Source: Catajapyx aquilonaris
Lineage: Eukaryota
NCBI GenBank assembly: GCA_000934665.2
Contig: JYFJ02000747.1
Span: forward strand, 1 to 64,000
DNA: 64,000 nt
Direction: 5' to 3'
Made by a program: the position numbers and the translations under genes. Positions 12,834-42,593 of this stretch are shown piece after piece. The notes under the pieces are model-generated. The model was not told the DNA's origin, made no database searches, and saw only the letters and a program-made list of their open reading frames with translations. The stretch's first letter is position 1. Every line of letters starts with the position of its first letter.

Positions 12834-14943
12834 CGATGCACAGTACAGCAGCATCAGATTGCATTCAAGTTGGTAGAATTAATCCGAAATGACGAGCATT
12901 CATTCCGCTCGTGGTTAATTATCGCATTGAAAAGTTGTGCAAAACAACGCACATTACTCACTTTTAAATACACCAAAATCCATACATAGTTTGGCCAAAA
13001 ACAAAGGCATGGTTTCCAAATGTAGTTTCCATGTACGCAACGATAATGCGTTGTGTAGAGCACTATGCGATGATCCCTCCGCTGCACAAAGGCGCCTTTG
13101 AAGCTGTCGTTACAAAGTCGGTAGAACATTCTGGCACAATAACGAATTATCTGTGTGCCGGTATTCAAACATAAACAAAAGAAAATTATTACGGTCCCTG
13201 CGGCGTAGTCGACGAAAAAGGAAAATTTTTGAAAATTCGTTGCATCAGCTAAACTTCAACCAAAATTGTCGAATACGGTGTACAGATGCAGTGGATCGAA
13301 ATTCCTAAATTAGCATGGATTTTGCAAGAGGATTAAGGTATGCGTGCAATTACCAATCAATGATGGTGTAATTAGATAGTGTGGAAACAACAGATTGTAC
13401 AAATGCTGAAAGCACATTTTATCCCAGCTCAATTTGTGATGATTGGGCACTTGACATGGACCTCCCTGCAACATCATATCGATATGGGTATAATCACTTC
13501 AGAGTGGCAAAAATTGCACTAACAGCATTGTATGAGTGGCATCAATATTATCACATCCACTTTATGAGGCATGTTACTCCCAAAAGCCAAATCTCTCATT
13601 GAATAGATGCAGTAAATTATCTAAAAGTAAATGTCCAATCTGGACTATTTGATACGCCAAAAATCGGCATTTTTCAGTGATAAACAACCAGAAGTTGAAC
13701 AGTTGGACAATGAGCATTTCAGTGATTTACGACGACCAATGACGTGCACAAAACTTACCTCATAAAACAAACAACAGACAACTTCTATATGAAAAGGAAA
13801 ACTTCCAGTGTCCGACAGACGGTCCCATCCTATTCAACCTGTATAAAAAGGGTTTCAGAGATGGCCTAATGATACTCTCATCTTTATCGTTTGATAGAAT
13901 TTGTCGCCTCATTGTTTTGCCTGCATTACCTATTAGCTATTACATCACCTTACCTTGCAATCAATATACACTCACTGTCAGTACAACTGTACAGTGTCTG
14001 TAATGAGGTAGGATCCTCATTGACAATCTACATTGCTAATGCTAGTTATCACTTACACTATATAGGTAGTTTCGATTCCAGACCAAGCAGTTAATCCAAT
14101 TTCCCCTGTGGACAAATGTCATTAGCAACTAAGCTTAATTTGCAGGAAAGTAATTGATTCAGTGCACTAAACAGATGAATCGTTTGTACCATTCTCCTGA
14201 ATTATCTGACATGTCTGTTGCCATTCCTTGCAGACCTAAATGCGGTGGGTTGTTGCTTATGTGGAGATTCATGCTCAAAATGTCATATGTGCAACCAGCT
14301 AACGCCCAGGGTGCGTGATAAAGCCCAATAAAAAAGTGCCGATGACACAAAGTGCGACAAACATGGGACAAAAATAAATATTGACAGCACCAAGGCCACA
14401 TCTCACACCTGGGGCGTTTCAGGGATTCATATTGTTCCATTTACCTGAAAAATATAACGGTCATAATAAATCAGCACAACCATTGGCAATGACACTGAAC
14501 AACCCACTTATTGAAAAACAATTGTATTCATGTCCACTTAAAAAAATAACTTAGCTTATATATATGTACAGACAGAAACCAAATAAATAGGACCCGATTG
14601 ACGCATTCGGTCAGACAAATGATAGCCACTTACAACATACATTGACCACAGTAATATAATTAAGTAGGATACTATAGTAACCTTTGGATTTTACGATACT
14701 ACAGTACTCAAAGTTGAGAAAATATCACACCATATCACACCCTCTAGTCTGGTCGCCAACAATGAAGCCCTAATCTACTAACATTACACAGTTTAAAATA
14801 AGTTACGCTTATAATGGACCTGAAACAATATCGCATCACAGAAAATATAACATTGTACTTGTACTCTCATACCGTACTTTTCACCTCCAGTAATACTGCA
14901 CTGAACTATTACGCACTGAGTTCAGCAATGTCATAATCCTGTT

Positions 14944-17900
14944 TCACACCCGGCTTCCCTCAGGAACTACAAAAGAAGGAAGGCCGCATTCTGGTTTCTG
15001 TTGGTCTTCGTGATTGGGAAGGTTCACAACCCATTCGGTTGAATCACGTGGTTTTCGTATGGATGAGGCGACTTCTCGTTGTGGGAGAAAACCACCAGAG
15101 AATGAGCTGGGGACCGGCGACCGCTGGAAAGGTACAAAAATGTCCTAATCAGTCAACACTATGGACATACTGATGGACACACAGAGGCATCGAAAAACAG
15201 AGGACAGATATGTGAAGAGCGGCTCCGGATGATGGCGATGAATGATGTGATGGAAGGTGATAATATGAGAGAAGAATGAGGCGGATGGTGGTGACAAACC
15301 TTATCCGGTTGTGGTTTGAGGAAGGGGGGCGATAGACGGAGGATCTGCTGCTATTGTTGGTGCTGCTGTTCGTTCGCATTGAAGCGTTGGTGGTATTGCT
15401 TCTACTTCGTACGGAAGACACTGAGTCCTCTGCATCCGTTACAACCGGTTTCAAGCAGCACAATATCGCGCGAAATACGGCTAGGAATCCCTACAAGAGC
15501 AACAAGACAAGTTGATGGCAATGGGAAAGGGATGGCGCCACCTGCACTGCGCCATCTACCGATAGTTTTAAACTAGTCTCCAGCTGAGGTGAAAATCCAA
15601 TTACATGCTGTATTGATGACATCCTGATTCATTTTAGCCAGCGCTTCTGGATGGGAGGTTCTATTCGCAACTTTATAAGAGTCTGAGGGTCAGATCCATC
15701 ATCCAGATGAGTCTGCATGGTCCTTCAAAGAATATTTAATTAACTAAATTACGCCAATTTTGATCAAACTTAGCTCCCAAGTCGTTTGGCTAAAGGAAGA
15801 GTGTGATGGATAACGTAACATTGTGCTCGGATCAGGAATACTGTACGAGAGGCCTTGACGGCTCCAGTTTATCATTGTTCTTCAGGCAAAACCAACTCCA
15901 GCATCATTAATATTGTTTACTCTACCACTTGCCGTCTTCACAAACTCGGGTAATCCGGGCTACAAGTCTCATCGCATTAAATATTAAACGTATCACTTTC
16001 GACATTTAAATGAAAAGTTACACGAAACGTTGCTTACAGTAACTGGAGTACTGGACAGACAGCGGATCCATGTTGACGTTAGAAAATAATAGTCACTTGC
16101 AATGAAGCCATTTCTTGCGACGAGTGGGCGAAGCACTATTGCTTACGGCAAAATGTCGGTGTTCGGAAAATACCCAGACCAATCAGGTGGAAGAATCGAG
16201 TTTCTCAAGGCAGACAGACAACATAGGGCTTCTCTGCTCGGTTCTAGTTGGTTCAAACCAGAATCAAATAAAATTGAAGCACATCCAAATACACGGTGGG
16301 TGGAATACCAAAGCATTATTATGGAATGCTGACCTTAATTGCATCGTGAAAACAACACTTTTGTTTGGTAGAAATTTTACAATTTTGCAATTCCTGTACC
16401 AAGTTTTGCTCTTTAAAAAATAATAATCAGGCGGTGGTATCGAATGGAAACTTACTGTTTAATGTAATATTCAAGAGTGGTGTGGGAAGAAGTTCCCTTG
16501 ACCCGAATCAAATATTTACAGTAAAAACGTGACAAATCTATGCTGTGTGAACTGAACAGTACATGTACAATAGTGTGGGGCTACATATTTTAATAATGCA
16601 ACATTTTAATATTTTGTTTAGTAAATTACATGCAGTCTAACTGCGGTAATTGTGAATCGTCTGGGCAAAAGGTCAAACATACATTATACTGTAGTTATGA
16701 AAAAGGCAACTCGTAATGATTCTAAAAATCAGCTAAGTGTTTTGTGTCCTAAGCCCCCTTATATAATTAGAATTAACTGAAAAAGATAAAACGCTTATGG
16801 AAACATGACATTACCTTCCTGAATCGGACGCTCATAGAGAAGTAGACCAGAGGGTTGATGCAAGAGTTGGTGAATGCGAGGAGGTTGATGCAGAGCATGG
16901 TGAAGAAAAATTGGTGATGGGACAGAAAGTTGTCCTTCTGAAGCACGGTCACCATTGACACCAAGAAGTATGGGCTCCAACAAAGGACAAACGCCATCAC
17001 GATCACCATCACCATCTTGGCCACCTAGTTTTAACGATTAAATTAATGATCACCAACGTGCATGGTATCAAATTATATAAAATATCAGCTAATTATCCCC
17101 CATGGGTTGTAACTACGACGGTTAACTGAAGTTTCTGCAAATGAGTCCCTTCCCGGATATCACAGTCAACCACTGGACTTCCTTAATTACACGAGCATGG
17201 GGAGTCTCCTGTAAACAAGGGCACCCAATTTGCTAACTATCTGGTATTTTCTTAAGAGACACATCGTCAGCCAAAATTCGGGCCAGGACGACGAGTCTCA
17301 GAGCCTTAATTACTGCTTCTCCCTATGTTCATTAAGCCACAAAAAATTTTAGCACACTAATTTCCATAAACGTTACATAAGCTGCACTGTCATGGTCACA
17401 CGTTTCATACTAAAAAACATGCCCCTAAAAATTATTCGCACACATCACATTTTTAAATTGACATTTTCCAGTCTACAAAATGCAACCTGTCAGACTTGCT
17501 TATGGCAACATAGGGTATTGACAGCTCGTGCAGCCCAGTGCAAAAAAATTTCAATATTGCATCCTGAAGTGTGTGCAGCAGCCCGCGAAAATGAATCCAG
17601 CTCACCTTTCTCCTGTTTTTCTCGGCCTGGAGAGTCTTCTGATCGGTCCTCTGCTGAGCAGGAATCTCCTTGACAAGGACTCTAGCGATGCAGAAGCAAG
17701 CTCCGCATATGAAGACTAACGGACATGCGTACATGAACACAAACAAGAAGACAAAGTAGCCTCGTCTGAAGTCATCCGAGAAGCTGCAAAGTATGGGAGA
17801 CATTAGACAATAAAATGTGTCCGAAATACGTGTCCTTACTTGTCAAAGCACATAAGTCGGGTGAAGGATCCGTAGTCCGAGTAGAGGAAGTCCTGATGGG

Positions 17901-20900
17901 CACTGGCAGGGTATAGGTTTGGGGCTGCCACAATGCAAGGGATCAACCAGATGACTAAGAGGACACGACGGATCCTCTTCGTGGTCAGTTTTATTCGCCA
18001 ACTCATTGGGTGAACCACCGCGTAATATCTGGAAAAAGTATCGTAAAAAGGATATATTTCAGCAAATATTTTAATGTCGTGCATTCACCCACGAGTATAC
18101 CAAACAAACAAAGCACATTATTATGAGATTCACGAGTCCTGGCCTGTTAGGCTCCACCCACCTCCTCCCAACGTCAGCGGCGGAAGAAATCAGGCCTGGA
18201 ATGCTATCGTGATTCTCGCGAGTAGGAGCCATTGGTGCGGGGTTCGGTCTCAACAAGGGATAGGTGGTTCGTCGTATTTCCAGGCCTGGTTGTGCCCCCC
18301 CCCNCTCTCCCCCATCCTCCTGGCAGGCGTGTGAGGCCATGGCGGACGCGGCAACCTCGCCTTCAGAGGGCGGAGGACGGGGGAGGAGCCTAACAGGCCA
18401 GGACTCGTGAATCGCATAATAGTTCGACGTGACAAAAGATCCTGGTTGCTAAACACACAATAAGCTGTATTCTCTTATGGCACGTTGCTGACAAGCTGGA
18501 ACAAAAGATGTTCTTCCGGATCGCTATATATATAATACCTGAGGGGTAGAAACCAAACAAAACAAGAGGAACGTCCGGGTCATCGCACTTACGAATACAA
18601 GGTGGGACAATCAGGATTGTTTATACAACAACAAAGGAATTACACCATACTCAGTTTGTTAGGTTCGTCAGGACAGGTACGAACCACCACCAATTGTTTC
18701 GGTCCTGTCTTCGTTACACGTAGGCTATACTGATTAACTCTTCACGACCGATTGTTCCTTCAGTGTCAGCCTTAAGATGTTCTTACATATGTCCACTAAG
18801 GCGTGGCACCATGACAGCCCCACGTGTCCAATTAAACCGAATCATCTACACGTGCTCCAAATCAATCCCAATGACAATAGGTTAGCCTATACCAAACCAG
18901 CACCTAGCATTAGTACATAAAAGTGGACTCCCACGCTGCAATTACCAAAGTGCTCTCAAAGCAATTATCTGTAATCCTCACAGTCGGAGCTAATATTTCA
19001 ACGCGATGGCAAATCCGCAAAGAAAACAAGAGCCCCGGAATTAATTTGTTAAGGGGTCGGGTCAACAACCAACTATAGCCACCGGATATACGGACCAGAA
19101 AGCCGACCTCCCACAAGCCTTTGTGGCTTCATGACACGGATAATGACAAAATCCGGGCCTACAAAGGCTAGTCCTAAGTACGACCACATGCTATATACTA
19201 TATCCAGCATGACACACCTGAAATATATTCACAAGTGCGACAGCGTCGTACAGTACAGTACAGGTGCGGTTTCTAGGGTATCAACCTTTGATCCCATATG
19301 CATACTTTGTTCACAAAGGAACAGCCAGAAGGTAATGGATTATGCAAAATAATACCGTACCTTTCTAAGGAGATCGTGACTAGAGTGAAGACGCTGGTGA
19401 AGACGAAGATGGTCTCGAAGTACCGGACGATGGTGCACAGGGTGTCTGTCATTATGTTCATGTCCGCTTCTGCAGTCAGCTCGAACAGCTGGAGAATAGG
19501 GATTCAGAATCTATTCAGTCAGTTGATGGAACTCTCAGAAACCACTGGCTTTTTATCAATGAACTCTGACACCGGCAGCCACAGGTTACACTAATGACAA
19601 TGCCACCCGCCAGCTCTACAGATTGCTTCTCAGGAGGTTACAAGCCTCAAATTGTGCCATTAAATATTGTGGCTTGTGTCTGACAATACTGCCAGTGTAA
19701 TGAAGCTCCAACTAATAATTGGGTGGTATATTTTGTCAAATTAAAACTGCACCATACGTACAGCATATAAAATCCAAATTCTGCACATTTTTTGAACCTA
19801 CTTGTCGTATCAGTATTGCGGAAAAGAATGCCTGTTACAACAGTGTCCCGCACTATATAAGGATCGATTGTGTCAGAAAGAGTGATGTGACAGGCGGAAA
19901 ACCTTGGCATCAAATCACATTCTAGTGTGCCTCCAGGAAAGGAGGACAACATAAATTTTTATCACGTAAATATCCCCCAAAGGATCTTCACAACCCTATC
20001 GGTTTTAAAATATTCCAAAAATTATTTTGTGCCAATTACATTTTACAGACTATTTTACGCACCTTGATAGGTAGCACAAACGCTCCGACCATGAAGTCGC
20101 ATATTCCCAGGTTGACTATGTAATAATTAACCGGCGAATGCATGCTCTGGTGCTGGTACACAGTGATACCAACCAACAGGTTGCCCACAACAGCCGCCAA
20201 AAATTCCACAGCATACACCGCAATGAAAACGAGTCTAACAGCTCGTATCTGAAATTAAGAGGACAGGTAATCAATCACTTAGAGACCACACAAAGGGATC
20301 AGAAAAAGATCAAAGTCGCCAAAAAAATATGACGTCACAGGATAAGAGAGTCGTAAATGCTATTTGTCGCTACATTTACAGTATGAAAAAAGTTCTATCT
20401 AATGGAACCAAGGAAGCAGGAATTTTATGGTAGACCCAGCACTTCCAACTTGTCCATTACATACTCCTAGCGGGTAGATTCTCTTGGGATACTGAAACAT
20501 TAACTGCCTGTCAGCGATATAGCTACAAGTCTAAAGGCCAGATGACTTGGCAGCATTTGGGGAAAACTGAGAAGAGCTGTGATTGGAGTGTTTCGGGCGC
20601 CAACTTCGTTATCGACCACTGAACGCGAGTGATAAAAAAGACGAGGTGCGAATTTTCCACGAGTGACGTAAGCAGGAAACAAAACAAATAGCTCGGAATG
20701 TTTGGAGATATTTGAGGAATGTTTAATAACCTTGCTTATGAATATGAGTGAATGTTTATCAGGAGCAGTCTATTGCACAGATTGTATGACCAGAAACTTG
20801 CGATAACATTACCTCCATATCCCTTAAGAGAAATGACGTCACAAAAGCTGCTCACTAGGCATGGTATGATTAATACTGACCTTCCCAAACTTTATGGCTT

Positions 20901-23900
20901 GAAAACTTACGGAATGCTTTTTTTCACTAAAAATGGCCGACGTTTATGGCGTGTCGCCAGATTCTCTAACATCCCAGTAGCGACGGTTTTACTATTTCAT
21001 TTTCCTCCATTTCCCCTTTAAAGACGACCGAATTGAGCTCAAAGGCTATTCAATATCTCAAAGCTTTCCCGTTAGTGGAGATTAAATGTGACTTGAATGT
21101 ACAAAATAACACGTTGGTGACGAGCATTTACGTTGACAGTATGCGATGTAACAAAGGACGGGTCAATGGCAGGCACTTCTATGAATTGCACTTTAAGTTC
21201 AATATTGGAGCTTCTATGCCAAAAAATGTATTTAAAGATTGTCCAGGCTTGTGATTAAAGTGATCAAAATTAGATCCATACCTGCGGTTATCTTACAGCA
21301 TTATAATGAAACCAATCTGAAACCTGCCAGAGAAGATGGCATCTGGGACAGCATCTGATTACATTACCGCAACCGAATCCACATCATCTTGACGTGCTTT
21401 ATTCGTCCGAAAATGCAAGGTCCATCTCAACTAATGCGGAAAAGCTTACCTTTCAATCCTATTTGCAGTTCTAACCTGTAGAGCTACAATATCGATCAAA
21501 ATCGTGCTTTCAACCACTCTTTCGTAACACCATTAAGCATCTCAGAAGCATGAGGTTTCACAGAATGGGAACAACGAGTGTAGGAATAACGTGACAATCT
21601 TGTCTCATTAAATAGAAACTAATCCTCAACAGTCACACGATTGTTAAATGAGATATCTACATGCGATCTAACGATGTTCATGTAGGCTACAGTGTTGGAC
21701 ATTAATCGCGTCGTACTGCTAGCGGCAAAGTGCAAAGTGCGAGCCGTGCAAGTAAGAAGAGGTAGGCCTTGAGTGACGTCACCCTCTGGGAGGCAATGGA
21801 GAAAAAGGCTTGTCCCAACCCAGTGACGTCACCTAAGGCCTACCATTTCTTACTCGCATGGCTCTATCACTTCAATTTGCACGTCTGCCGCATCGGAAAA
21901 TGTCGCTAGTAGTGTACCGATTACAGTAAACGTTCAGAAAAAAGTACGGTGTTTGTTCCTAAGCCCAAATTAAGTTAACAGCATGTTAAAATAATTTCCA
22001 ACACGTCGTGCCTAAGGGCTACAGATCTGTTGATCTCAGAACCTTCCAACAATTTATCAACAACGTTTTTTAGGTTGCTGCAGTGCTCCACTTCAGGGTT
22101 TTTACTATCGAAAACTGCAGCGATAAAAAGTCTCATGTAGCCATTCAATCACTCAAAACGATATCCATCAAAGTGATTTTTTTCCCTCCTCCATAAGATC
22201 CTTGATGCTGCTTTATTTCACATCCGTGACGCGAACTCAGAGCATAAAAAGCGAGGAGACACAAAGTTGAATATGATTATTAGCAGATAACAAAGTTCAA
22301 ACAATCTGTTAGATGAAAATTTCAATAAATTTTGTTGTAACGACCTTCAACATTCATAACACTACCTAACTATGGCAGTTACTTTAATATCTTGTTACCA
22401 GTCATAATAGAAGGTATTATATCGCATGACCTACAGGCACAAAGAAGTGGGTCGTTATTGGGTTACAAAACACGTTTGAAGCCTATCAAAACAATCATTT
22501 CATACTCCTAATCAAGGCTAGCTTCTAAGGCAACATCGCAAAGTAAAGAAACACTGGGAAACTTCCTAGATTTTTCTATATACTCTTACATAACGTTCTT
22601 TTTGACACAAGATATCCTTCAAAAGGTGCTCGGCTAATGAGGCAAAGGCTGGTTCAAACAGAAAAAAAAAAAGATCACTGTTGCAGGTAGGTTGTTATGG
22701 TTTTCATTATGAAAGATACAGGATGAGTGCAAAATATCTTATAGGTATGAGCTGGGCTTTAATCAACATTAGATTCAGGTCGTTTTCTGACGATTTCCAT
22801 TTCGTTCCAAAAAAAATCGATTTTGAGAAAAAAAGGTCGTCTGTGGCACATATTCAGCTTGGGAAAAATCCAATCACAGCACTGAACAAATTAATTTCCA
22901 TGTAACTGGATTCAAACGAAAGAGCACATAATCTCCGACAGATTTTTTCTTACATCCTTGATTCTAGGACTTCCAGGCTCCAAATCTTCCCTTCCATACC
23001 AGTAATACGGGCTTGATCAATAAAATGCCTCCCGGCTCTAAACAAGGATTATGATAACGATAAAAATATTTGTCCAGGGATTATTACATCACCTGCAGGC
23101 TTATGTCGTTCAATCCGGATCTAAGTCATAATTCAAGTTTTCAATTATACTGCGCCTTTTATGCTCTTGACTTCCTCACAAATCCTGGATCATCCTCATA
23201 TACTAATAGAGCGATGTTTTCTTCCTATTTCTGCCTAATAATGTGGCTCTATACCCGCAGTATTATACTCACTAATAGCCTACCTTCCAACAAAATTCCA
23301 ATTTAATCTGTACTTGATCATACTCGTTTCAAATTTAAGTACGTGGTTTCCAGACAAAATACCCACCCTTTAGCTGCTGGTAATGCTACTAATGAGACTT
23401 GGAAATAGTGTCATGATAGTATAATTATCTCCAGCTCACTTTACGTACACCCGCATCAAATTCTGAACTTGAGTACATTGCACTCAAAAATTTCCAATTC
23501 CCATCACTCGTGTTTAATTTGCCTGCTGCAATGAGACTCTCTCATGTGTAATCCAACCCTTTGAGTGATCTCCCTATAAAACATGGTGGGTCGAATAATG
23601 CTCGTAATTACTTCTTACTCTTTGATCCAAAATGCGATGCGTTCGAATAAGACATTTGGTTGATCAATATTCTGCGGATGTAGTACAGTACCTATTCAAA
23701 GAACCAAAGGGAAGACAACAAAAACGTTCCTTTGGAGGTCTTCCAAAAGCCCCGTTTTTCATGGAGGAACAGCAAAAACTTTGCGCACTAAGCTTTACAG
23801 CGAAAATATACAGTGGTTGTTTATATACTCGAGGGCTCGCGAGTGAAGAGAAAATTAGGCTGGGAATTGTGGTGGCTTCCCAGAAAGTGATTTAAATGCT

Positions 23901-26592
23901 CCGGTGTCTGTTGTCGTAAACACTGCTTAAACCTGGTTTCAAACTCTGCTTTCATAAACATGGTTTTGAGATAATTAACTCGACTAAAGTGGAATAGGCT
24001 ATACGCAACCCATTGTGTTGGAACATAGGATTTGCACAACTTTCACTGTTATTAATTGGTTTAGTGCATCATAACCAGTTGTTACTGCTAATAGTATCAT
24101 AACAATCAACTGAACAATAATCAATCCGCAAAATTACGCCGCAGAAAGTAATTAAAATGCAAAGCCACAACTAAATGGAAACTAAAGCCTTCCTGTTCAT
24201 TTGTATGTCTGCTATAAGTTAATTAGCTTGGTATGTACTATAGAAGAGCAAACAGGCGAGTTGACCCATAATATTATCTGCAAATTGCTTTCCACATCAC
24301 GTTTCTTGGCCTTATATCAGTTCCATCTCAAACTGAGCTTAAGTTACCCCCACTAAATGGTCAGGGGTTATGTCACTGCACTTCCTCAGGTCACAGAAAA
24401 CGCTAGGACAAATTGCAGTGTTTTTCTAGGCCACTTATTTTGGACTAGACATCCAGCATTTCCCGTTGGAGGGCGCTCAAGTGGAAACAACAATGACGCC
24501 ATCTTTTGGATGGCAGCGTGGGTGGGGGACATTTTGAAAATTCCACAACGATGGATATGAAATGCAGAGAATGCACAAAGGAATATCGGAAGCATCCTTC
24601 CGTTGTTCCTTTTTTAATTAGTCAAACCTTACGGTTTAGTGGGTAGAAACAGCTTTGATGTTCGACATAATTACCACCGATGCAAGCTCCGTTTCCTCCG
24701 CCAATTAAGTCTTGCCATTTATATGGCTCAAGTTGTACTTACTCTCTGCTAACAATACTATTCTCTAATGACAACTTGCATACAATCTCGCAACTATTGG
24801 ATTCCAGCCCAACAGGGTCCAATTGTTTTTTTCTAGAACGGGCAGTATGCTCCATAAAAAATGAGCTATTCAAATAGTAACAATGAACCCAAATGACAAT
24901 TTTACCTTGCATGAACATAATCGAAAGTGATACTTTCAGAGCTAGCCAGAGAGCTAGCTGCAAGTTGAATCACTCTACAAACAATCGGCTTTGTGCAATG
25001 ATACATGAGGATATTCAACTTTTTTTGCGCCAAACTTTATGTCCACAAAGCGCATGGAAATGCAGATAAAATTTTTCATATAAACACTGGCAATCGACAT
25101 ACTTTCCTGACTTCAAAGACTTTCATCCTTGACTCCACTAATTTCATCCGGATTCTAAACTTGAGCTTTCATCTCATCTTGGTACAGCGTTATTTCAACC
25201 TTTGAAAGCCACTTATCGGTTCTATTTTGCCCGCATTCCGCGTCTGCTCAATGCTGACTAATTAGACGCAAAAAAATATGGGTGGTTTTTACGTCGCATC
25301 AAAGCATGCTAATTGCTTTTCGTTGCAAATTCATATACATCCAGATTTGAAACTGGTTTCAGTGCAGATGGCCAATTTCAGCCACGTGTAATCCTCTTAC
25401 AGTGTGGTTGGGAAAAACACTAGAGACTTCAAGAAATACGAGTCCAATTACACCAAGTACATGTCTGAAGGTCAAGGCTGGTGATGGAACTCGAATGGTG
25501 GCAGCAATTTCGGGGATTTGGCTCCGGATTCCTTTATGCTCCCATATATTCCCATAGACGTCATCAGGCTTCTGTCCTGCGATAGCTCCTATTGGGACAG
25601 GTTACGACGCTATATAACACTTCAATATAGCGTAAACGGCAATGGGAAACAATAGTGTAATGAACAGCATTTTTTTTTGAACTATTTCATATAAAATTGG
25701 AATAAGCCACTTCTGACGAATTCAGTCTTATTTCCAACAAAGAAGCCGCGATGTTGGAATGTCCATAGTCGTTGAAACTCTCCGACAATAGTCGACAGCT
25801 TTGCACAGGGCCCGGACAGCCAGCTTATTGAAGTACGAAAAGTTGTCGACAATTTTGCACAATGTTTCCAGCAGCTATACAGAAAGAGCAATACCTGCCT
25901 CCTATTTCAGAGGCAGCGTAGGCGAGACGATGATTATTCTAACACTGGTTAGAAGCACGAAACTTGAGTCCTTAATCGCATTATGGTAATGACTCCATTC
26001 ATGTACATGCTGTTGCAGCTTGTCACGTTTCATGTTTAATCAGCCGTAATACATTTTGATAAATTGAAAAAGATCGATGACCATGTAGCTTTGTCCAATA
26101 TTTACAATGTGCAATAATAAAGAAGCGTGCAAATATTAGTACAGTCTTAAAGCTTCATGACAGGTATGCCTCAGCTTTAAGATAAATCCGACCAAGTACT
26201 GAATGAACAGTACTAGATTAATACTCAGCAAATCCCTGCAATTCCAGTGCAAAAAACCTGCAAAAGTGACCTCGTTCAAACGTGAAGTCAACAAGTACTA
26301 CTCGGATCAGAAAGTTCGTAGATACATGCAAATTGATCACTCGATAAAAAAAAAAGTAGGTAATACATATTCTATCACCAACAAAGTTCCTCTGACGTGG
26401 ATAGAAACTTCCGACATTTAACCCCCCGTATGAAGTTTGCAAAGTGGCAATTTTCTTGGGAAAAACCGCAAGTTTCCTGCCAAAAGTTGACACATGCCAT
26501 TTAATTAAATGTGGTCTTACCTGCGAAAAGTCCGGATATGCATCATCAGTGAGAACTAAACTCTCATTCCCATCCAATTCCACTAGTTCCAT
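14944..26592 (-). CDS. Class A peptide-type GPCR (QRFP/orexin/CCK-receptor-like), paralog A, 8 coding exons
   Basis: Exons 26592-26521, 20248-20063, 19488-19361, 18028-17840, 17783-17606, 17024-16815, 15490-15300, 15123-15024 (alternative stop 14944), all GT-AG and phase-consistent (417 aa). Motifs GN (TM1), NLGICD (TM2), ERY, CWSPY, NPLVY, CC after helix 8, N-glycosylation site NES. Confidence 0.9.
18075..19213 (-). mobile_element. Candidate solo LTR in intron 3 of GPCR A
   Basis: Ends TGTCGTGC / GCATGACA (7/8 inverted), TATA-like run near 18525, GT-rich U5-like end; not seen in paralog B; no TSD found. Confidence 0.35.
18119..18421. mobile_element. MITE with about 37-bp TIRs
   Basis: TATTATGAGATTCACGAGTCCTGGCCTGTTAGGCTCC versus GGAGCCTAACAGGCCAGGACTCGTGAATCGCATAATA (1 mismatch). 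Confidence 0.85.
21741..21864. mobile_element. Foldback/MITE-like inverted repeat carrying two TGACGTCA sites
   Basis: About 42-bp imperfect arms GAGCCGTGCAAGTAAGAAGAGGTAGGCCTTGAGTGACGTCAC / GTGACGTCACCTAAGGCCTACCATTTCTTACTCGCATGGCTC. Confidence 0.7.
23070..23400 (+). mobile_element. Degraded LINE APE-endonuclease remnant
   Basis: Broken motifs GSSSYTNR, PTF and SVLDHT resemble the APE motifs WGS..TN.RG / PTF / S.IDL. Confidence 0.35.
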
Positions 26593-27775
26593 CCTACAAA
26601 CCAGTTAAGAAATATCTCCACTAAAACCCGTCCTATAAGCACCTCTGGCCATGTCAGGCATCGGTTTGAATCGGCGGTGCTTCACGGTGAGGGTTAAATT
26701 GTACGACAAAGTTCAAAATGCGCAATCGCAGTTTGTAACCCCATTTCACCCCCCCCCCCCCCNCCCCCCCCCAACCCCCTGGCTCATCTCTCGCCAAATG
26801 TCTGCGCGTGAACTTGTCCTCGGTTAGTTCCACATCTATAGATATGGTCCAAACACCCTTGACCCTGTCTATGTTCCCGATGGTGATGGAAGCTCATCCA
26901 CATGCAAATTACGTGGAGATTAGTAGAGTTCACTGTGGGTTCGATGCGATTTGACATCTTGATTTGTATGCAAATGCAATGATTTTTAATGCGTTGGTGA
27001 CCCTGTAGAACTTTGCATCAAGTTACTACCTGTTATGTCAGCCGCGAGTTACGGTGTTGTCAGGTGAGAGGGTACGAATTAGTTCTATAGTTTCGGACGG
27101 CAGAGTTCCAAGTTTAGGAACTTGGTCGTTGTCCAATAGTTCAACTCATTACTGAACGTGGGACTTTCTTAGCAGGGCCCAGGACTGGTAGGAAACTTCA
27201 TAATTAGTTCATTAATTAATGACTAGTTTCCTTGGGCACCACCCTGGCCTACGACTGACCTCCCAGTATAATGATAGCCAAGGAGGTAGTTACGATATCG
27301 CAAAACGCACAAACACTGTAATTATTATATATATAATTATATTAAAATCCTTGTGGTGTTTGACCGAGCTCTCTGATTGGTCCGCCGCATATTGTTACCG
27401 CCACCTCCCCATTGGCCCGCGTTCTAATCATGCACCATGGGGTGTATAAACAACTCCTCTGTTGGGTTGCGGGGAAACTGCCCATTCGTTCTCTGCATTG
27501 TTGCCCAATTAGCACTACTGCAAAGTTGTTTACAGAGTCAGTTCCCTTTATGGAACGACAGACATAGGACAGACATGTTCTCACCTCTCACTAATTGGGC
27601 CGTTCGAAGACTGCTGGAGGGTTAACGTTACACCCTCCCCTGTCGTCCCCGGCGATATGGTGCGCCGAATAGGTACCTCAGGCCGCAAGCCTAGAAAAGA
27701 GCGAGCGAAGCGAGTGGTTTTCTAGGCCTACGCCATAGACAAATGTGAGCGAAGCGAGGGTTTTTGTATAGTTAT

Positions 27776-27945
27776 AATGTAAAATTACTAATGTATGTAT
27801 ATTACTGAAATTAAAATTACTAAATTACTAAAAAATTACTAATGTATGTATTACTCAAATTAAAATTACTAATTACTAAAAATTACTAATGTAGTATGTA
27901 TTACTCAAATTAAAATTACTAAATTACTAAAAAATTACTAATGTA
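27776..27945. repeat. AT-rich minisatellite, about 50-bp unit x3
   Basis: Unit AATGTATGTATTACTCAAATTAAAATTACTAAATTACTAAAAAATTACT repeated; follows GAGCGAAGCGAG repeats of a probable non-autonomous element. Confidence 0.85.
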
Positions 27946-30074
27946 GACTACGTATAATATCCTGCTAACTGTAAATACTGTATTTATTTTCATCTGTTTT
28001 GTCTCAGCATGCCAGTGCAAAATTTCGTCATGATAAAACATTGTATATACCACTGATGATATAGGATATCGGAGTGTTGGTTTACTCTATCTTCAGGACC
28101 GTAGCAGACAGGGACGTTGGTTGGTGCCCATCATTATCTGCCAAGGCGCCAATAGCAACTGCAGCTAACGATCTCACGCATAGTGGACAGATCTATCAGC
28201 CTTATTCCTGACATATATGCCGGATGTTCCTTTGCAGCTTCTATCAACATATCCTCTAAAGCTCTGGGAGGCGTACAAAGTGGCGATGAAGTGAACAATC
28301 CTCAAGTGCGTGATAGTATGATGAAGTGTTTAAAATGGTTAAAAACATAATTTCTAACAACATAAATACCAAATGCTAAGTAAAGATAATCCCTTCCCCT
28401 ACCCTACATCCTTGACTCCTTGCACCGGTGTACGAAGAAAAGTGTGTATACACATAGAAAACTGATGGTGGTGAGCCACCCCCCTATAGGGCTTAGGGCC
28501 CACAACGGGGTACATAATAAAATAAAGTTAATTCTGGGAGTGAAAAGTTAGGTAGCTACAGGGTATAGGGAGCTCAAGATGTGTGGAAAGTTCTTAGTTA
28601 CTACAATCAGCATTGTGCTCTAAAGATTTCTTCTCATGAAGTTAGTCAGAATCATTATAAAACTCTTCATATACTGTACATACCATTTTCCACTCATTTA
28701 AAGAGGCGTTTTCTGGGAGGGGCTTCTGATGTAACAATACAGAAACTCAGTAATGAATTCCACTTCTGAAGTCTTAATACTGATGTGATGATTGTCCTTC
28801 ATGCATGCAGTTCTGCAACCTATGAAAAGTTAAGGGTACCGTAGATATGGCTGGCTACATAATGTAAAATTCATTATGCTATAAGGATTAAATGCATATT
28901 AAGTAAATGTAGACTGCGTTGAAAAACTTTAATTGTTCCAACGTCAATATTGAAGTGATGCAATCAAAGCGGGACTACTGCTCATTATACCTGAATGATT
29001 GAAAATGACTTATTATCAAAAATTCCTTCCATTCCTCGTTTATTAGCAAATGATTGTACACACTCTACAACAATCAGAGGCTTACCTTTAAAAAAACCTT
29101 AAAGTCCACTACAGTGCACCTTTATAATCATACACGTTTTCACAGGACATACCATTCAAGGCTGGTTCACAACCATACAAAGTGTAATACATTCCCTTTT
29201 CTGTCCTCATACAGTACATGACGTTCGCAAAAATTTGCCCATGGGGATGCAGCTTATGAAACAGCCCTTACAAAAATAGCGGCTACAAAATTATTTACAA
29301 CTTATTACACACAACAAATTCATTGTATATATGCATATTCAAATACTGCGACATAAAATGAGAGCATGAAGAGTTTGTACTTAAACGTGAGAGAGGAATT
29401 GCAAAATATCTGCAGCCTCTTCTATGCCATAAAACAATACTACTTATTCACTGGAAGCCACATCATGTAAAATCCTGCATAATCAAGGAATTGTACTCGA
29501 AATTAGGACATTACCCAAAAGCTATGGCTGGGCATCTCTCTCAAAAAAATGTAGGAAATGAACGGCCCCATTTTTTGGAAGCTAAACACAGACCTCATTA
29601 GAATCATATTATATGCTTCCCTGAACATACACCAACGTCATTACTTTCATACCACAGCCGACACATAGGATGGAATGTAGGTTAGCATACAAAGAGGCCA
29701 GTAATTCTCGTACAACAAAATGAGCGATTTACTGACTTATTCCAACACCTTGTTTTTTGGCTAGTCATTACTAAACTGAAATATCACCGCATGCCTGACA
29801 CTTATCCATTGAAATTACTTTAGAGAATTTTGGTCTTAGAATAAGTGAATAAATCATTTTGATAATTATGCGGGAGTCACTGCTGACCCCTCTGGTACTG
29901 TACTGTATCATCATCACAGGTCATCACACTTACCATCGGGTTTCTCTTGGCTGGTGAGTGAACTTACTGAGTGTTCATATTTTCTCAGCATAGTCCTGAA
30001 CACCCACTGACCACCCACACCATTTTCTTCATGGTCTTATAGTTGCGTCCGCTCCTTCCACCACACTTCCCACT

Positions 30075-33000
30075 TCACACCCTGCTTCCTGCAGGAACCA
30101 CAACATAAGAAAGTCCATATTCATCGTGATCGATGCTGTCATTGTGTTCCTGCTTTTTCACAACCCATTCGATTGAACCAGGTGACTTTCGAAATGATGG
30201 TAGTATTTCTCTCCGTTTGACAAAACTACCGATGTATGAGATGCGGAACGGCAGTTTCTGCAATGCAACAAGGACAGGTTTTAGAATGGGGTTAAGTTAT
30301 GATCTAACAACAACGTTAAATATAATATAATATAATTGTAATTTTACACAATTCCATACCGACAGCAGGGTCTTTATGATCAGAATATGGCCATATTTAG
30401 GACTAAAAACTATTAAAATATGCTAATAGAATATAAAGTAATCTGCTCAAATCAAGAAGGTCACAAACCTTTTTCCAATAGAGGATGTGGAAGAAGGATG
30501 AAAGATGGAGGACCTGCTGCTGTTTGTATGAGAAGATGTGTTGAAGGTATTGTTCCTACTTCGTATGGAGCAAGTGGACTCCCTTGGCTCCAATAAAACC
30601 CGTTTCGAGCAGCAAAACATGGTGCGAAATACCGCTAGAAATCCCTACAAAAATGAAAAATGTGACATCAAATATAGGAAAAATCAACAAAAAATCACTC
30701 CGTAACTCGAAATGATCCGTAGTATGTAGGAAAAGCAAACTGGAAGTTAGGTGAAACTAGTTTAATTACATTGATGGAAGCTAAATGAATGTAGCCACCA
30801 ATCCCAACACTTCGCTCGAAGGAATGGTTTACTCCCTAAGAGGATCACGTCCATCAGTGGAAAGCCCAGAAAATCCTCTCCATGATGCTACAAAAGTATC
30901 TCAAATTTGAGCTGGCCTCTGCTCTCCTCTCCTCTCCTCTAGTTTGCACTCATGGGTCTTTTTTGTTGAAAAGTTTAGGATAAGAGCATCGTGCCCGAAA
31001 CTTTTTTGACATATTACGTATCAGTGTTTGGCTGTAAGAAATTTAAATGAGTTAACTTAGTTTGGACCACAGATTTATGGCAACCCCATTCCGCAGAAAA
31101 CGAGAAAAGTCTCTGGCGCCAACCTGCGACGTTTGCTACTGCTTTCTTCCGGTGCCTTAAGTCAACTGGCCAAGATTGGTTCCTGCTTATCATTGCTCTT
31201 CAGGCCAAATCGAGTAAGTCAGGCTCATTTACTGCGTCTCCTCTTAGAATTCTCGCAATTCCTACCAAAATGACATTATCAGAAGCAGGCAAAATTGGGA
31301 GTGGGTTTCTTCCAAGAAATAGAAATGACAGCATCAACCCACATCGCTAAGTCTATTTCTAAGACAGAACCAATCTAAAAAAATCGATCTGAACCGGCAC
31401 ATCTTTCGCTAAGAATTAAGTAAAAGTGCCTATTTTTACTATCATGGTTTGATTAAATGTAGGATATTTCAAGGTTAAATCTTACTGAATGTCATCATGG
31501 CTTACCTTACGGAAGCGTAAGCTCATGGAAAAGTACACAATGGGATTGATGCATGAATTGGTGAAGGCGAGGAGGTTGATGCAGAGCATGGTGAAGAAGA
31601 AGTGGTGATGGGACAGAAAGTTTTCTTTCTGAAGCACGGTCACCAGAGACACCAGGAAGTACGGGCTCCAGCAGATTACAAACGCCATCACAATCACCAT
31701 CACCATCTTGGCCACCTGTTGGATCAAAACTTAGCATCAGTAAGGGTTCACACTAACCAGATATTTGATCAATGGCCATTTATTGCGTAATAACCTTAAG
31801 TTATGCAACTACTGGCGGTTAACCACTGGTCTGTACTAATTATACTGTACGAGATAGGGGTTTGAGATTCTGGAGCAGTAAATAAGAGCTTCATAATCCC
31901 TAACTAGCAGGTATTTACTGGCTGTCTGCACGAGAGGATATATGGGACAAGTCTTTGAATTGCTCTCTCTAGATGTTCATAAACCCAATAAAGTTACACT
32001 CTCAGGCAGAAATTGCTACCGCACCATCACAGTCAAGTGTGGGCCACACTTGGCCAAATCGATTTCTATCTATTTTAAGTGAAAAGAAACATGGCCAAGA
32101 ATATTGCATCGATTAGTTCGAACCTTTTCCATCATCATTACGAGGTCAATGTTAGGTATTGAAAAGACTTTGCATAATCACATTTTCCATAAGGCTTCTC
32201 ACCTTTCTCCTGTTTTTCTCAGCCGTGAGAGTCTTCTGATCGGTCCTATGCTGAGCAGGAATCTCCTTGACAAGGACTCTAGCGATGCAGAAGCAGGCTC
32301 CGCATATGAAGACTAGCGGACAGGCGTACATGAACACAAACAAGAAGACAAAGTAGCCTCGTCTGAACTCGTCCGAGAAGCTGCAAAGTATGGGAGACAT
32401 TAGACAATAAAATGTGTCCGAAATATGTGTCCTTACTTGTCAAAGCACATAAGTCGGGTGAAGGATCCGTAGTCCGAGTACAGGAAGTCCTGGTGGGCAC
32501 TGGCAGGGTACAGGTTGGGGGCAGCCACAATGCAAGGGATCAACCAGATGACTAGGAGGACACGACGGATCCTCTTCGTGGTCAGTTTTACACGCCAGCT
32601 CATCGGGTGAACCACCGCGTAATATCTGAAAAAAATGTTAAAAATACCCGGTTTTTACTCTGTGCGTCATACATGGACAGCCATTACTGTCTCCCTTGTC
32701 GACCAGAAAGACAACACAAAAGATGCCTTGTCATCGCGTTTTTTCGGGCGTCGGCTGTCCCTAACGACAAGAGCCCTTATTTTCCAGTTCGTTACCTCCG
32801 GCTCAGAAACCAAACGAAACGTGAGCATCATTAAGTACACAGAACTCTGCCAAGCTGCTTAAGGTGGTTGACCTGTGCTTCACACTTAGTTACGCAATGG
32901 CAACTGAAATTTACAAATAAGCCAACATGCAGATTTGGGTATACCTGTCACTAAGCCATATCAACAAATCGGGCATCGCAACTACAAGGCATATAACTCA

Positions 33001-36000
33001 TTATATCCAGTGCTGTCCACCCAGCAATTACTAATAGCTGTAATCCTCGCAATGAATGCTCATATTTTCAACTATGAGGAGCATAATAAAAAGGGTCAGG
33101 ACGAGGACGTGGGAGGAGGAGTCCGGTCATTAATTTATCATGGACGTCATGTCTCGTCAGTAGTTAAGGTCAACAACCAAGGAACCCCCAAAGTGCGATG
33201 TCCCAGGCAAATGAACGTCACCATTCAAAGCGAACGCTCCTAGAAAGTTCTGGGTATTAATCACACAAATGTCATATACGCCCTGAACGAACCAATTGCT
33301 GCAAAGTAATTAGTAAGTCTAGTTGAAATAGTGTAGGCCGTGCTAAAGGTCATGTTGGTCATGTCATACTGTACACTCTGTGGGTTTTTATCTACTTAAT
33401 TCTATCATCAGTATCACCCACACTCACACTGTCACCTTGAAAATATATTTACACGAAAATATTAGTAGGAAATAGGCCAGTATTTCGCACAGTACTGCCA
33501 TACCTTTCTAAGGAGATTGTGACTAGAGTGAAGACGCTGGTGAAGACGAAGATGGTCTCGAAGTACCGGACGATGGTGCACAGGGTGTCTGTCATTATGT
33601 TCATGTCCGCTTCCGCAGTCAGCTCGAACAGCTGGAGAATACATAGGATTCAGTCCACAGCAGGCGTAGGCGTCTTCTGGCAAAGCAATTTTAACAGTAG
33701 CCTACAGTTGGCCTTTTAATAAAAAGAATAAATTGGAAACATATGTCATTTATAAATTTGGGAAATTTTAAGCGTCAAATAGCGCGACATTAATCCATAA
33801 ATAGCCGCATGATGCAGGCAGAAATTTTGACTATTTTTATTCAAAGAAATAAGTCAGTTGTGTTAACTCAACGAGAATATCAACGAAGACATTGTATTCA
33901 ACCAGTGCCTATTAAAGAAACAATTCATGCTTTAACAAATCGATTTGAACAAATATGGCACGACCTCAGACTCTCATCGTTCAGAAAGGCAAAGAATCTC
34001 CCGCTCTGACGAAAACATCGTCTGCGTTAGTGAAAGTGTTACCAAATCTACAAAAAACGTCAACAAGAAGACGTTCTCAACAATGAAACTATTAGACGAA
34101 ATTTTTTAAATTTTAAACACAATTTTCCTTACAAAATACCCTGACGGTCGTGTCAGTCGTGCCAGGTTCTACTACGTAGGGAACATACGCAAACTAATCT
34201 GTTCCAACTTCCAAGTATCAATAATTCACAATCTGGTGGACATATTCCCAATTGACTCCTAGACATGCAAGGTGAGTACAAGGCTAACCTTGACCTAACC
34301 TACTACACTGACCTACAACCATGCAAGGTCACACACCAACGTACCTTGACAGGCAGCACAAATGCTCCCACCATGAAGTCGCATATTCCCAGGTTAACTA
34401 TGTAGTAATTAACCGGCGAATGCATACTCTGATGCTGGTACACAGTGATACCAACCAACAGGTTGCCCATAACCGCCGCCAAAAAGACGACTGCGTAGAC
34501 GCCGATAAAACCAAGCCTAACAGCTCCAATCTGGAATTACAGAGAGGAAATCAATCACCTTCTCTCACCCACGCCAAAATTGTTACAAATGATCCCACCG
34601 ACAAAGCGAAAAGCATGCTCACCCATTGATCCGACCAACATGGTTCAGCACTTGAATCACGACGTACTAATAATCTATATAACGTTTGTGAGTCTGTCTG
34701 TCTTTCTGTCTATCTGTCCGCCCACCAATGCCATCTGGATGCGGTCCGGGCAACGCCGGGTATCGCAGCTAGTAGTTCATAATTCTGGTGCAAATGACAC
34801 TATTGGGTTCGTAGAATAAAAAACCAGAAATGAGAGAGCACATTTCCTCAATTACATGAAGCCCTTGAGAAATTACAAGGCGATAGAAGATGACCTTGCT
34901 CTACATCTAATAGAGAGCTTTGAAGCTAGTTGTAAGCTTGGTATTCTATACATTAGGAACCGTGTGATGAAATTCTCTCTTTAGAGCGAGCTTAATCCAT
35001 CTTAAGAGAGTCCCATTCATAGCTGATAGTAAGCGTGGGAAGCTGAATTAAAGCATTGAACCAAACTTTCGAGTTCAAAAGTCTTAGGTTTACACCCCAT
35101 TTTAATTACTTCTGCTGATGACACGCCATTGTATTGGGAACTGTAGTAAAACTTAAGTGACGCCTACGTGGTATGAAAGGGTTACAGTTCAAAGAGGTCA
35201 TAAAACCACTAGATAAAACGGCAACGTAAACAACATATGTGTAAACAATTTTCTAAGCCAGAAAGTACTCCCATTTGATGTGGTTTTATGCACTTAAAAT
35301 TTGTCGCATATTCTAAGCCCCATTACGTCAAACCTCCCAGTTCATTAAGATTTTAAACACCTTAATAACAACTTTTCTAAACGTGCCATCACAGTAGGTT
35401 ATTGTCGATATAGTGTCACGGATATTTTGCAAAACTCTTGAGACCAGAAACTGACTTTAAAAATAATGATATACGACTGTCCGATCGATGTGGGTTCTTA
35501 TGCGAAATGGCATCCATGTTATCAACTGGAAATACCGCTTGTATGATACATCTGGAATTATGAACTAATAACCCCCCAGACGGTGCCTTACGAGACTAAT
35601 ATCAAGCGCAACAACGCTATTACCCATATGGATAATGAAGGGTAAGCATAACTAACAAAAATATCCTCCGAGATTTAATCTCCTCCATAGGGAAAGAATA
35701 CACCACAAATCGATGATCTCATTATTCTGTGGTGTAACACTGTGCATTAATAAATTCACAAACGGCATGGGATATGGTTTTTATGTAAGCCTATACTCCT
35801 TTCTTCAAACACTCGCATTTAGTTAATTATGTGCACCGTATTGGTCGGCTCATCAGCATATAATAGGCGTGATGCTCCAAACGTACTGTATACATTTCGG
35901 TTTGCTCATTAAGCCACATTTTAACGACTTGTTATTACCAAGTCGAATAAAGATGCTATTAAAAACCCTCTCAAGTTTTGAAACAACAACGATTTCTCCT

Positions 36001-36554
36001 TGTAATGCGATGGGTGTAAGTTAAGAGTGGGTGTAATCAGCCCGGTATTTCATTCCACTGCCACCAGAAATAACTTTGAAAGTAACGGCGCGGCGCAACT
36101 ACTTAAAACCAACAGTAAACTAAGTTATTATAAAAATTTCACCCCTGCCATTCCCCAAAGACCCACACGTAGACTAATTATTACGCAACTGGCACAATTT
36201 CTCTACATTCCAGTGTCAAAGAGGTAACTAATACGAATCACATTTTAAATAATTGAAAGCAAATATTTTCCCACCAATTACTAATCCTTAATAGCTAAAA
36301 GGCCCATGAGCTTTTTGTGCTGAAATTTTTTTAATAGGCCCGTAATAATGGCATTATATGTATCCCTTCAAAGAGTTCAAAGGACGCCTGGTTACATTAT
36401 CCTTGCAGTATTATTCACAACACTGTTACATAAACGTGGTGACAGTACAAAGGCATGTCCGACAGCACCAGATTTATATGCAAATCTCAATACAGTAAAT
36501 TATAATATTAGTCTTTCAATACTTGTGTTGCATTTCAGTTAAAACATTTTCCAC

Positions 36555-36639
<85 letters not shown>

Positions 36640-41424: not shown

Positions 41425-42593
41425 CACTACAGGTACGATCGGAATTCGCTACATTGCCTCTCCAGTTGTACTCAGGTGTCCCAAGTGGTCACCTCCAACT
41501 ATACCTCCACTTCTTGGTTTGGCAGACATCGAAGGTCTGGTTTGAATCCCCGGGGCTCTCCAGAGCCATACGACAAATTCCGAACAGAGGTCTATAAATG
41601 CGCAGTCGCATCCTATCGCGCCTTTCTTCGCTGTCTTCTCTGGACCTCTGCGCGTGAACTTGTCCTCGGATATCGGTATTGCAGAACCCTTGACCCCATC
41701 GCCTTGTTCATAACCTTCGCTGTGATTTTGATGCTAATGTATGGCGATAACAGCTATTTATATCCACTGTCAGTGCTGGAGTTAAACTCTACTTAATATT
41801 TTTTTAAATATAATATAACTATGAAAGCTACTGCGCACACTATTGCGTAACTATCTGCTTGAATTCACGCCTGTCTAGAGACGGTATTGAATAGCCTATT
41901 CAACTTCTGCATCGGACAAACACAATTAGGATCACAATTTCTGCCACACGCACACTCGGCCTTCACCTCCACTCATTATTCGCATCCAACTAATAGAAAC
42001 CGAAACAAAACTATGAACTGATCATAGGGAACTCACTCACATGTGTACATGACATGTTTCACTTTCTGGACTCGGCACAGCTGAAGGTTTATTTATAATG
42101 GTCCTCAGGCAAAGCCTGACAACCCTTTCAAGATCACATTTGGCAGACCTCAACGTTCCAGAGATAATAGACTCGGAATGTCTAAGTCAAGGGTGTCATT
42201 CTTACACGTAAAATAGCGTGCAGAATATTGAAATAAGTATGAAAAGGATTGGATTACAAAAAAATGTCATTTGCGCATCCAGCTAACGCCCAGGTGTATA
42301 CGTGCCGCCCTTGAGTGAAATCAAATGGTCAATGACACCTAGTCATAAAGTATGACAAATGTAGAAAGGCGTGACCAGGAAGCGTGTGCAAATATTGACC
42401 ATTCCCGATGGGGCGTAATAACTCGGTATCTGGTATCAGCTTTGATATAGCTTCAGCGCGAATTTCAACGACATCTATTGGATGCTGGCGGCATAGCACA
42501 GACTTAGCTGACATCTGCAGGATGCTTGGATTCATTACCGGGCATTCAAGAAGTTTTTGTTGTTGTTTTGACAATGTTTTTTTATCGTAATAA

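Follow-up and report, generated by a model that had tools for sequence, protein, structure and literature searches.

A Terminal Exon Open in Two Reading Frames in Two Tandem Receptor Genes of Catajapyx aquilonaris and a Plausible Cassette-Exon Switch of the C-Terminus

Introduction

More than one third of human genes have annotated dual-coding exons, and 105 transcript pairs have been reported to be under selection in both of their frames (10.64898/2026.05.28.727796). The same study describes dual-coding regions, in the ATP2B family and others, that were kept in all paralogs, implying an origin before the duplications (10.64898/2026.05.28.727796). In GluN1 (GRIN1), an alternative acceptor in the last exon has been reported to shift the frame and to alter the C-terminus (PMC8257547). 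Among G protein-coupled receptors (GPCRs), 5-HT4 and 5-HT7 have tail splice variants, some with and some without a PDZ ligand, which differ in partners and localization; the class I PDZ ligand is defined in that report as S/T-X-hydrophobic (PMC2644495). Frame switching of a terminal exon by non-triplet splicing upstream of it is already well documented. The present analysis concerns a stretch of 64,000 nucleotides (nt) from Catajapyx aquilonaris (NCBI GenBank assembly GCA_000934665.2, contig JYFJ02000747.1, positions 1 to 64,000 of the forward strand), here called the window. Its minus strand carries two tandem rhodopsin-type GPCR genes, A and B, of eight coding exons each, and in both genes the last exon is open in two frames, one ending in the residues NGL and the other in GSRV.

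The mechanism considered here is that each of the two genes makes two C-terminal forms out of one last exon, with exon 7, a cassette exon of non-triplet length, setting the reading frame of exon 8. With exon 7 included, the receptor tail would consist of the start of helix 8, a Cys-Cys (CC) pair, a Ser/Thr-rich stretch and the NGL end, and the CC pair is likely a palmitoylation site. With exon 7 left out, exon 6 would be joined to exon 8, the same DNA would be read one base out of register, reading would continue beyond the NGL stop for 27-28 codons, and the skipped form would carry a tail of 59-60 residues after ...RFRK ending in the PDZ-ligand motif GSRV. Stops in the last exon escape nonsense-mediated decay as an established rule, so decay of the skipped mRNA, whose stop would lie in the last exon, is not expected. 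Overall, the interpretation as a switch is plausible and, as judged from the comparisons made below, somewhat strengthened.

Gene Structure and the Two Frames of Exon 8

Gene A extends over positions 14944-26592 of the window and gene B over positions 30075-41424, both on the minus strand. The spliced models encode 417 amino acids (aa) for A and 411 aa for B when exon 7 is included, and 380 aa for either gene when it is skipped. Exon 6 of gene A (16815-17024, with boundaries tag/GTGG and AAG/gtaatg) codes for transmembrane helices (TM) 6 to 7 with the NPxxY motif, and both it and exon 6 of gene B (31506-31715) end in phase 0 after ...RFRK. Exon 7 is 191 nt long in A (15300-15490) and 176 nt long in B (30469-30644), is 2 mod 3 in both, and has the donor GTTTGT in both. 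In gene A it codes for the start of helix 8, GFLAVFRAILCC, followed by a tail rich in Ser, Thr and Asn. Intron 7 of gene A (15124-15299, 176 nt) is not conserved with that of gene B, and behind it lies exon 8.

In gene A, the part of exon 8 covered by both frames is at 15024-15123 and includes the NGL stop (TGA, 15026-15024); the part open in the GSRV frame only, past the NGL stop, is at 14944-15023 and ends ...VVPEGSRV with a TGA at 14946-14944. Exon 8 of gene B (30075-30257) has its NGL stop at 30160-30158 and a GSRV frame of 60 codons that ends ...VVPAGSRV with a TGA at 30077-30075. Read after exon 7, exon 8 gives 32 residues ending in NGL, and the tails of A and B are identical at 15 of the 32. 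Read in phase 0, it is open for 59 codons (A) or 60 codons (B) and ends in GSRV in either gene. The length of exon 8 to the GSRV stop is 180 nt in A and 183 nt in B, a difference of 3 nt, and both stops are at homologous places in the two genes. The S-R-V end fits the class I PDZ-ligand pattern [S/T]-x-hydrophobic in both genes, given translation of the frame, and the NGL end is outside that pattern. Both genes thus have a non-triplet exon 7 upstream of a last exon with two frames open to their stops, which is the anatomy of a dual-coding terminal exon.

These features had been put forward in a preliminary description of the same DNA, and the spliced models reproduce the phase-0 end of exon 6 at 16815 in A and 31506 in B, the two lengths of exon 7, and the product of 380 aa per gene on skipping. 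The openness of exon 8 in two frames in both paralogs, the partial identity of the NGL tails and the matching GSRV stops were likewise confirmed. The frame-preserving difference of 3 nt and the synonymous pairs GGC/GGA, GTA/GTG and CGG/AGG cited there are present in the codon alignment; the three pairs are 3 sites among about 30 differences past the NGL stop. Stop-free stretches are common in the non-coding DNA of the window: at a length of 27 codons, 3431 of 16344 windows (21%) lack a stop, and at 60 codons 543 of 15358 (3.5%) do. Taken alone, the open second frame is weak evidence, and it is the conservation that exceeds chance.

Conservation between the Two Copies

Alignments of A and B were scored as z values against shuffled sequences. 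The part of exon 8 shared by both frames has a z of 10.4 (64/97 nt identical), and the stretch from the NGL stop to the GSRV stop (80 nt in A, 83 nt in B) has a z of 8.6, with 56 of 74 aligned columns identical. Two blocks in and around this stretch are nearly unchanged. Block 1 surrounds the NGL stop (15023-15043 in A and 30157-30177 in B, minus strand; 20/21 nt identical) and block 2 the GSRV stop (14943-14970 and 30074-30101, minus strand; 24/28 nt identical), and the middle of the stretch between them is also conserved (28/44 identical, z 3.8). Conservation is at the level of random sequence on either side of exon 8: intron 7 has a z of 0.7, and 3' of the GSRV stop the z is -1.3 for the first 80 nt, -0.9 for the first 200 nt and 0.7 for nt 201-400. 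The blastn alignment of A and B stops one base past the GSRV stop. The inter-stop stretch and its blocks, conserved next to a random 3' flank, are thus constrained, up to the point at which the GSRV frame closes. Conservation past the NGL stop is at roughly the level of the undisputed coding tail, exon 7 having 70% nt identity between A and B.

The first 10 nt of intron 7 (15290-15299 in A; 30459-30468 in B) are identical at 9 of 10 positions, GTTTGTSACC, and the remainder of the intron is unalignable. Retention of this intron would read ...RFVT... in both genes and would add 7 more codons before the stop in B and 52 in A.

Between the two copies only exons align, with the 58-nt intron 4 as the sole exception among the introns. 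The segment made up of exons 4 and 5 and this intron (17601-18049 in A; 32198-32644 in B) is 94% identical, and the intron is identical at 57 of 58 nt. Exons 3-5 are 92-96% identical between A and B, and the synonymous divergence (dS) of exons 4 and 5 (0.28 and 0.14, respectively) is below the 0.64-0.70 of exons 2 and 6. Gene conversion acts in the middle of the two genes, in exons 3-5 and intron 4.

Splice Routes into the GSRV Frame

Exon 8 begins at homologous acceptors in A and B, and its conservation sets in at about the sixth base, which fits the use of one shared acceptor. Joined to this acceptor, exon 7 (phase 2) leads into the NGL frame and exon 6 (phase 0) into the GSRV frame. The donor GTTTGT of exon 7 in A and B is the only one among the 14 donors that is not of the form GTR, the other 12 being GTA or GTG, and the retention of a weak donor by both copies agrees with a regulated inclusion of exon 7. 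Of the routes tried, skipping of exon 7 is the only one that reaches the GSRV frame with homologous splice sites in both paralogs.

Other sites that would give access to the same frame were found by reading the sequence. Downstream of the acceptor, the AGs that are compatible with the frame occupy non-homologous positions, 17 nt inside exon 8 for A and 32 nt for B. Phase-0 GTs are found at two homologous places within exon 7 of both genes, after GFLA and after ..CC.K., and would be weak donors (GTATTT and GTTGTA/GTTTTA). The preliminary description had allowed for either skipping or a shifted acceptor; the former gains from the homologous sites, and the latter loses from the different positions of the AGs in the two genes.

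Several further devices were considered and rejected. Within exon 8, mini-introns leading from the NGL frame into the GSRV frame are either non-homologous or yield an end in ...NGRV; the sole homologous pair, with a donor in block 1 and an AAG acceptor in block 2 (77/80 nt), has this ...NGRV end and a poor acceptor. For a programmed -1 frameshift at the NGL stop, no slippery heptamer was seen in block 1, by inspection only, and a +1 frameshift there would enter the wrong frame. An internal start was rejected as the GSRV frame has no Met in either gene.

Substitution Tests in Both Frames

All substitution tests rest on the two sequences A and B and have low power, with 25-33 codons. The ratio of nonsynonymous to synonymous divergence (dN/dS) by the Nei-Gojobori method was 0.51 in the NGL frame; for the GSRV frame the overlap gave 0.85 and the 25 codons past the NGL stop gave 0.88. 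In exon 7, which is undisputed coding sequence, dN/dS was 0.73, and the tail evolves fast in any case. A check of dN/dS in both frames across orthologs had been proposed with the preliminary description; carried out on the paralogs A and B, it gives the lower ratio to the NGL frame and does not single out the GSRV frame.

A permutation test with BLOSUM scores, in which the observed differences between A and B were re-dealt along the sequence in 5000 simulations, recovered the coding frame of the control exons, with P < 0.0002 for exon 6 (0/5000 reached the score) and P of 0.003 for exon 7, and with P of 0.48-0.90 for their other frames. In the overlap of exon 8, P was 0.037 for the NGL frame, 0.115 for the GSRV frame and 0.26 for the third frame. 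After the NGL stop it was 0.048 for the GSRV frame, 0.053 for the +1 frame and 0.98 for the +2 frame. Mismatches between A and B by codon position mod 3 numbered 13/12/9 in the overlap and 10/7/12 after the NGL stop. Codon-usage log-odds had no power, the NGL frame of exon 8 itself scoring like non-coding DNA. These two-sequence tests neither support nor exclude translation of the GSRV frame.

Receptor Family and C-Terminal Ends in Relatives

Exon 6 alone matches the Pfam family 7tm_1 (PF00001) with 45.2 bits against a gathering cut-off of 30.5 (E 1.1e-11), and the spliced models of A and B have ERY after TM3 and NPxxY in TM7. In protein searches with exon 6, the closest relative was a GPCR of the springtail Allacma fusca, 73% identical. 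The best matches came from a pseudoscorpion, springtails (Allacma fusca, Folsomia, Orchesella), a centipede and chelicerates, followed by molluscs, annelids and nemerteans, an order of matches by which the source is probably a non-insect arthropod. A, B and the relatives share the motif YPDF[ST]Q ahead of TM1 and the motif MSxRFR behind NPxxY, and by such sequence similarity A and B are members of a protostome orphan receptor group. With the Allacma homolog as the query, the nearest solved structures were those of bombesin receptor subtype 3 and of galanin and somatostatin receptors. The automatic names given to the relatives are in conflict (QRFP-like, cholecystokinin-like, galanin-like and tachykinin-like), and a functional name for A and B is therefore unjustified. 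A metagenome scan with exon 6 returned nine loci, all GPCRs at 33-40% identity, none of which was used.

The ends of the relatives were compared in a sample of 100 fetched proteins that have a tail of 80 aa or more and bear the signature of the family. A C-terminal [ST]-x-[VLI] was found in 15 of the 100, as compared with a frequency of 3.4% for this pattern within the tails (binomial P 1.5e-6), and 11 distinct PDZ-type ends were left after three groups of near-identical tails had been merged by eye. Such ends include ...ESSIV in Allacma, ...DETIV in Strigamia, ...EQTSL in a millipede and ...ETSYL in a scorpion paralog, and in addition ...EETFL in a sea spider, ...TSTQL in a spider mite and ...NTEI in an oribatid mite. 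The models of many other relatives end otherwise, and some of these must be incomplete predictions. Ends of the class I PDZ type are thus recurrent in the receptor family.

The Allacma tail gave no significant alignment to the frames of exon 8 (441/500 and 303/500 shuffles reached the score for the NGL frame, and 307/500 and 382/500 for the GSRV frame). The likeness of the ends ...HLAQESSIV in Allacma, ...GHLVQL in a mollusc and ...HLVQSNGL in gene B is not significant. In Folsomia candida, two deposited models of one paralog agree to ...RRIANSER and then continue as ...NFWRTV in one and as an extension of 50 residues in the other; as far as such models indicate, uncertainty of the C-terminal model or alternative last exons occur in a springtail relative too.

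Interpretation and Alternative Explanations

The reading that we tentatively prefer combines several parts into one claim. An orphan peptide-type GPCR of a non-insect arthropod would have gained the cassette switch before it was duplicated, and both frames would have been kept by selection since. The switch would trade helix 8, the CC site and a phosphorylation-rich tail for a PDZ-ligand tail without helix 8, and the ancestral PDZ anchor of the family would survive only in the alternative frame. As a whole this is possible but falls somewhat short of an even chance, and skipping of exon 7 as the route by which the GSRV frame is used is held with the same tentative confidence. That the GSRV frame is translated by some route, whichever it may be, has about an even chance. 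The preliminary description had proposed a PDZ-tail isoform older than the duplication; the anatomy of that proposal is borne out, and it gains from the conservation up to the GSRV stop, from the PDZ-type ends of the family and from the weak donor. We infer, from these, the skipped mRNA and its translation, the binding of its tail to PDZ domains and the origin of the switch before the duplication.

Several observations weigh against this reading. Skipping of exon 7 places Pro-rich sequence at the site of helix 8, and such a receptor could fold or traffic poorly. In the relatives, one polypeptide carries the PDZ-type end together with helix 8 and the Cys site, and a form lacking the latter two has no precedent in the receptor family. 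A protein search with the GSRV frame found no match, in libraries that contain no protein of this species or of close ones. Open alternative frames are frequent in the gene and around it, and several exons, including exon 8, are open in alternative and antisense frames. The pattern of substitutions fails to single out the GSRV frame, with a dN/dS of 0.85-0.88 and a permutation P of 0.048 next to 0.053 for the +1 frame, and tblastx scores the three sense frames and some antisense frames alike.

Some of the same observations would be expected if the NGL form alone were made and the approximately 80 nt past its stop were a conserved element of the 3' untranslated region (3'UTR), such as a site for a protein or a small RNA, over which one frame is open incidentally and near the end of which a TGA occurs by coincidence. 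The conservation is at the nucleotide level without clear codon periodicity (13/12/9 and 10/7/12 by position mod 3), the tblastx scores of all frames are alike, and the identity is concentrated in the two blocks (20/21 and 24/28 nt), which share a GGGT(T)GTGAA core; an open frame of 27 codons is found in 21% of the non-coding windows. There was no Rfam match at E up to 1 and the consensus fold is weak (-10.5 kcal/mol, with a compensatory change in 0/15 pairs), although such elements often have no Rfam match and often lack a covarying fold. Also against a 3'UTR element are the stretch between the blocks, which is above chance as well (28/44, z 3.8), and the coincidence of a conservation that halts at the GSRV stop, a length difference of one triplet and an end motif typical of the family, the joint chance of which is about 1 in 100-200 by a rough estimate that was not computed. 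On balance, we regard a 3'UTR element as a serious rival that is only a little less likely than the skipping of exon 7. Gene conversion offers another, in which the similarity past the NGL stop would be a remnant of conversion, or of slow decay, and the open frame would be without function. Conversion is evident in this pair, as exons 3-5 (92-96%), intron 4 (57/58) and the dS of 0.28 and 0.14 attest, and open alternative frames are frequent; however, intron 7 is random (z 0.7), a converted tract would need to end exactly at the acceptor of exon 8 and at the GSRV stop, and the stretch has diverged like exons 2, 6 and 7, unlike the converted exons. With an unconserved intron on one side and a stop codon on the other, gene conversion is not an easy explanation, and a history of this kind combined with chance appears very improbable.

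The GSRV frame might also be translated by way of a splice other than the skipping of exon 7, either from a phase-0 donor inside exon 7, by which part of helix 8 would be kept, or into an acceptor farther downstream in exon 8. A product of this kind would resemble the relatives, which combine helix 8 and a PDZ-type end on one polypeptide, and candidate sites exist as the phase-0 GTs of exon 7, whose two places are homologous between A and B, and as frame-compatible AGs 17 nt (A) and 32 nt (B) into exon 8. The internal donors are weak (GTATTT and GTTGTA/GTTTTA), however, the internal acceptors are at non-homologous positions, the conservation of exon 8 from about its sixth base fits one shared acceptor, and the mini-introns are non-homologous or end in ...NGRV rather than ...GSRV. 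A route of this kind is accordingly considered quite improbable.

Other Features of the Window

A third copy of the gene was not found within the window by translated comparison (tblastx). Upstream of both genes, about 210-250 nt before the start codons, there is a 26-nt element identical at 25 of 26 positions (26801-26826 for A and 41647-41672 for B, minus strand), possibly a promoter or 5'UTR element common to A and B; it is followed by weaker colinear matches. Intron 1 of gene B contains a long microsatellite of the (AAT)n type at about 36540-36740 that reads as open frames of poly-Asn, poly-Ile and poly-Leu. The spacer between the genes has a tandem repeat at 27781-27945 with two adjoining copies of 67 nt that are 94% identical. 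In intron 3 of gene A, at about 18050-18450, similar fragments of reading frames on both strands suggest an inverted repeat or a transposon remnant. The two N bases of the window (18304 and 26763) are each within a long C run of the plus strand and are probably homopolymer uncertainties of the assembly.

Comparison with Known Systems

A standard gene model of this locus would give the NGL form alone and would label the conserved 80 nt as untranslated, which is a warning for annotation. Should there be no switch, the conserved stretch of 80 nt would remain a candidate regulatory element common to two old paralogs. If the switch exists, one splice choice would toggle a neuropeptide-type receptor between a phosphorylatable, lipid-anchored tail and a tether to PDZ scaffolds, and the toggle would alter the location of the receptor and the duration of its signalling. 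The general dual-coding cases rest on many species and on peptides, and the case of A and B rests on two paralogs.

Among the described systems, ATP2B1-4 with their PMCA a and b forms have the same arrangement, in which the last coding exon takes its frame from a non-triplet cassette exon close to the 3' end (10.64898/2026.05.28.727796). Unlike A and B, which are two copies within a single invertebrate genome, PMCA is a pump of a vertebrate family with transcript and peptide evidence. The exon-skipped PMCA b forms end in a PDZ ligand. In GluN1, the route is an alternative acceptor instead of the skipping of an exon, and the protein is a subunit of an ion channel. One of the C-terminal ends of GluN1 has a PDZ-binding motif. 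Like the two proposed forms of A and B, the isoforms of 5-HT4 and 5-HT7 are GPCRs that diverge only past a splice point in the tail (PMC2644495). The dual-coding C-terminal regions documented so far are mainly those of vertebrate neuronal genes, and the present genes, if the switch is real, would add an invertebrate GPCR to them. The 5-HT4 and 5-HT7 variants seem to draw on separate terminal exons rather than on two frames of a single exon. A functional switch in A and B would thus be an invertebrate GPCR counterpart of the C-terminal switches of PMCA and GluN1.

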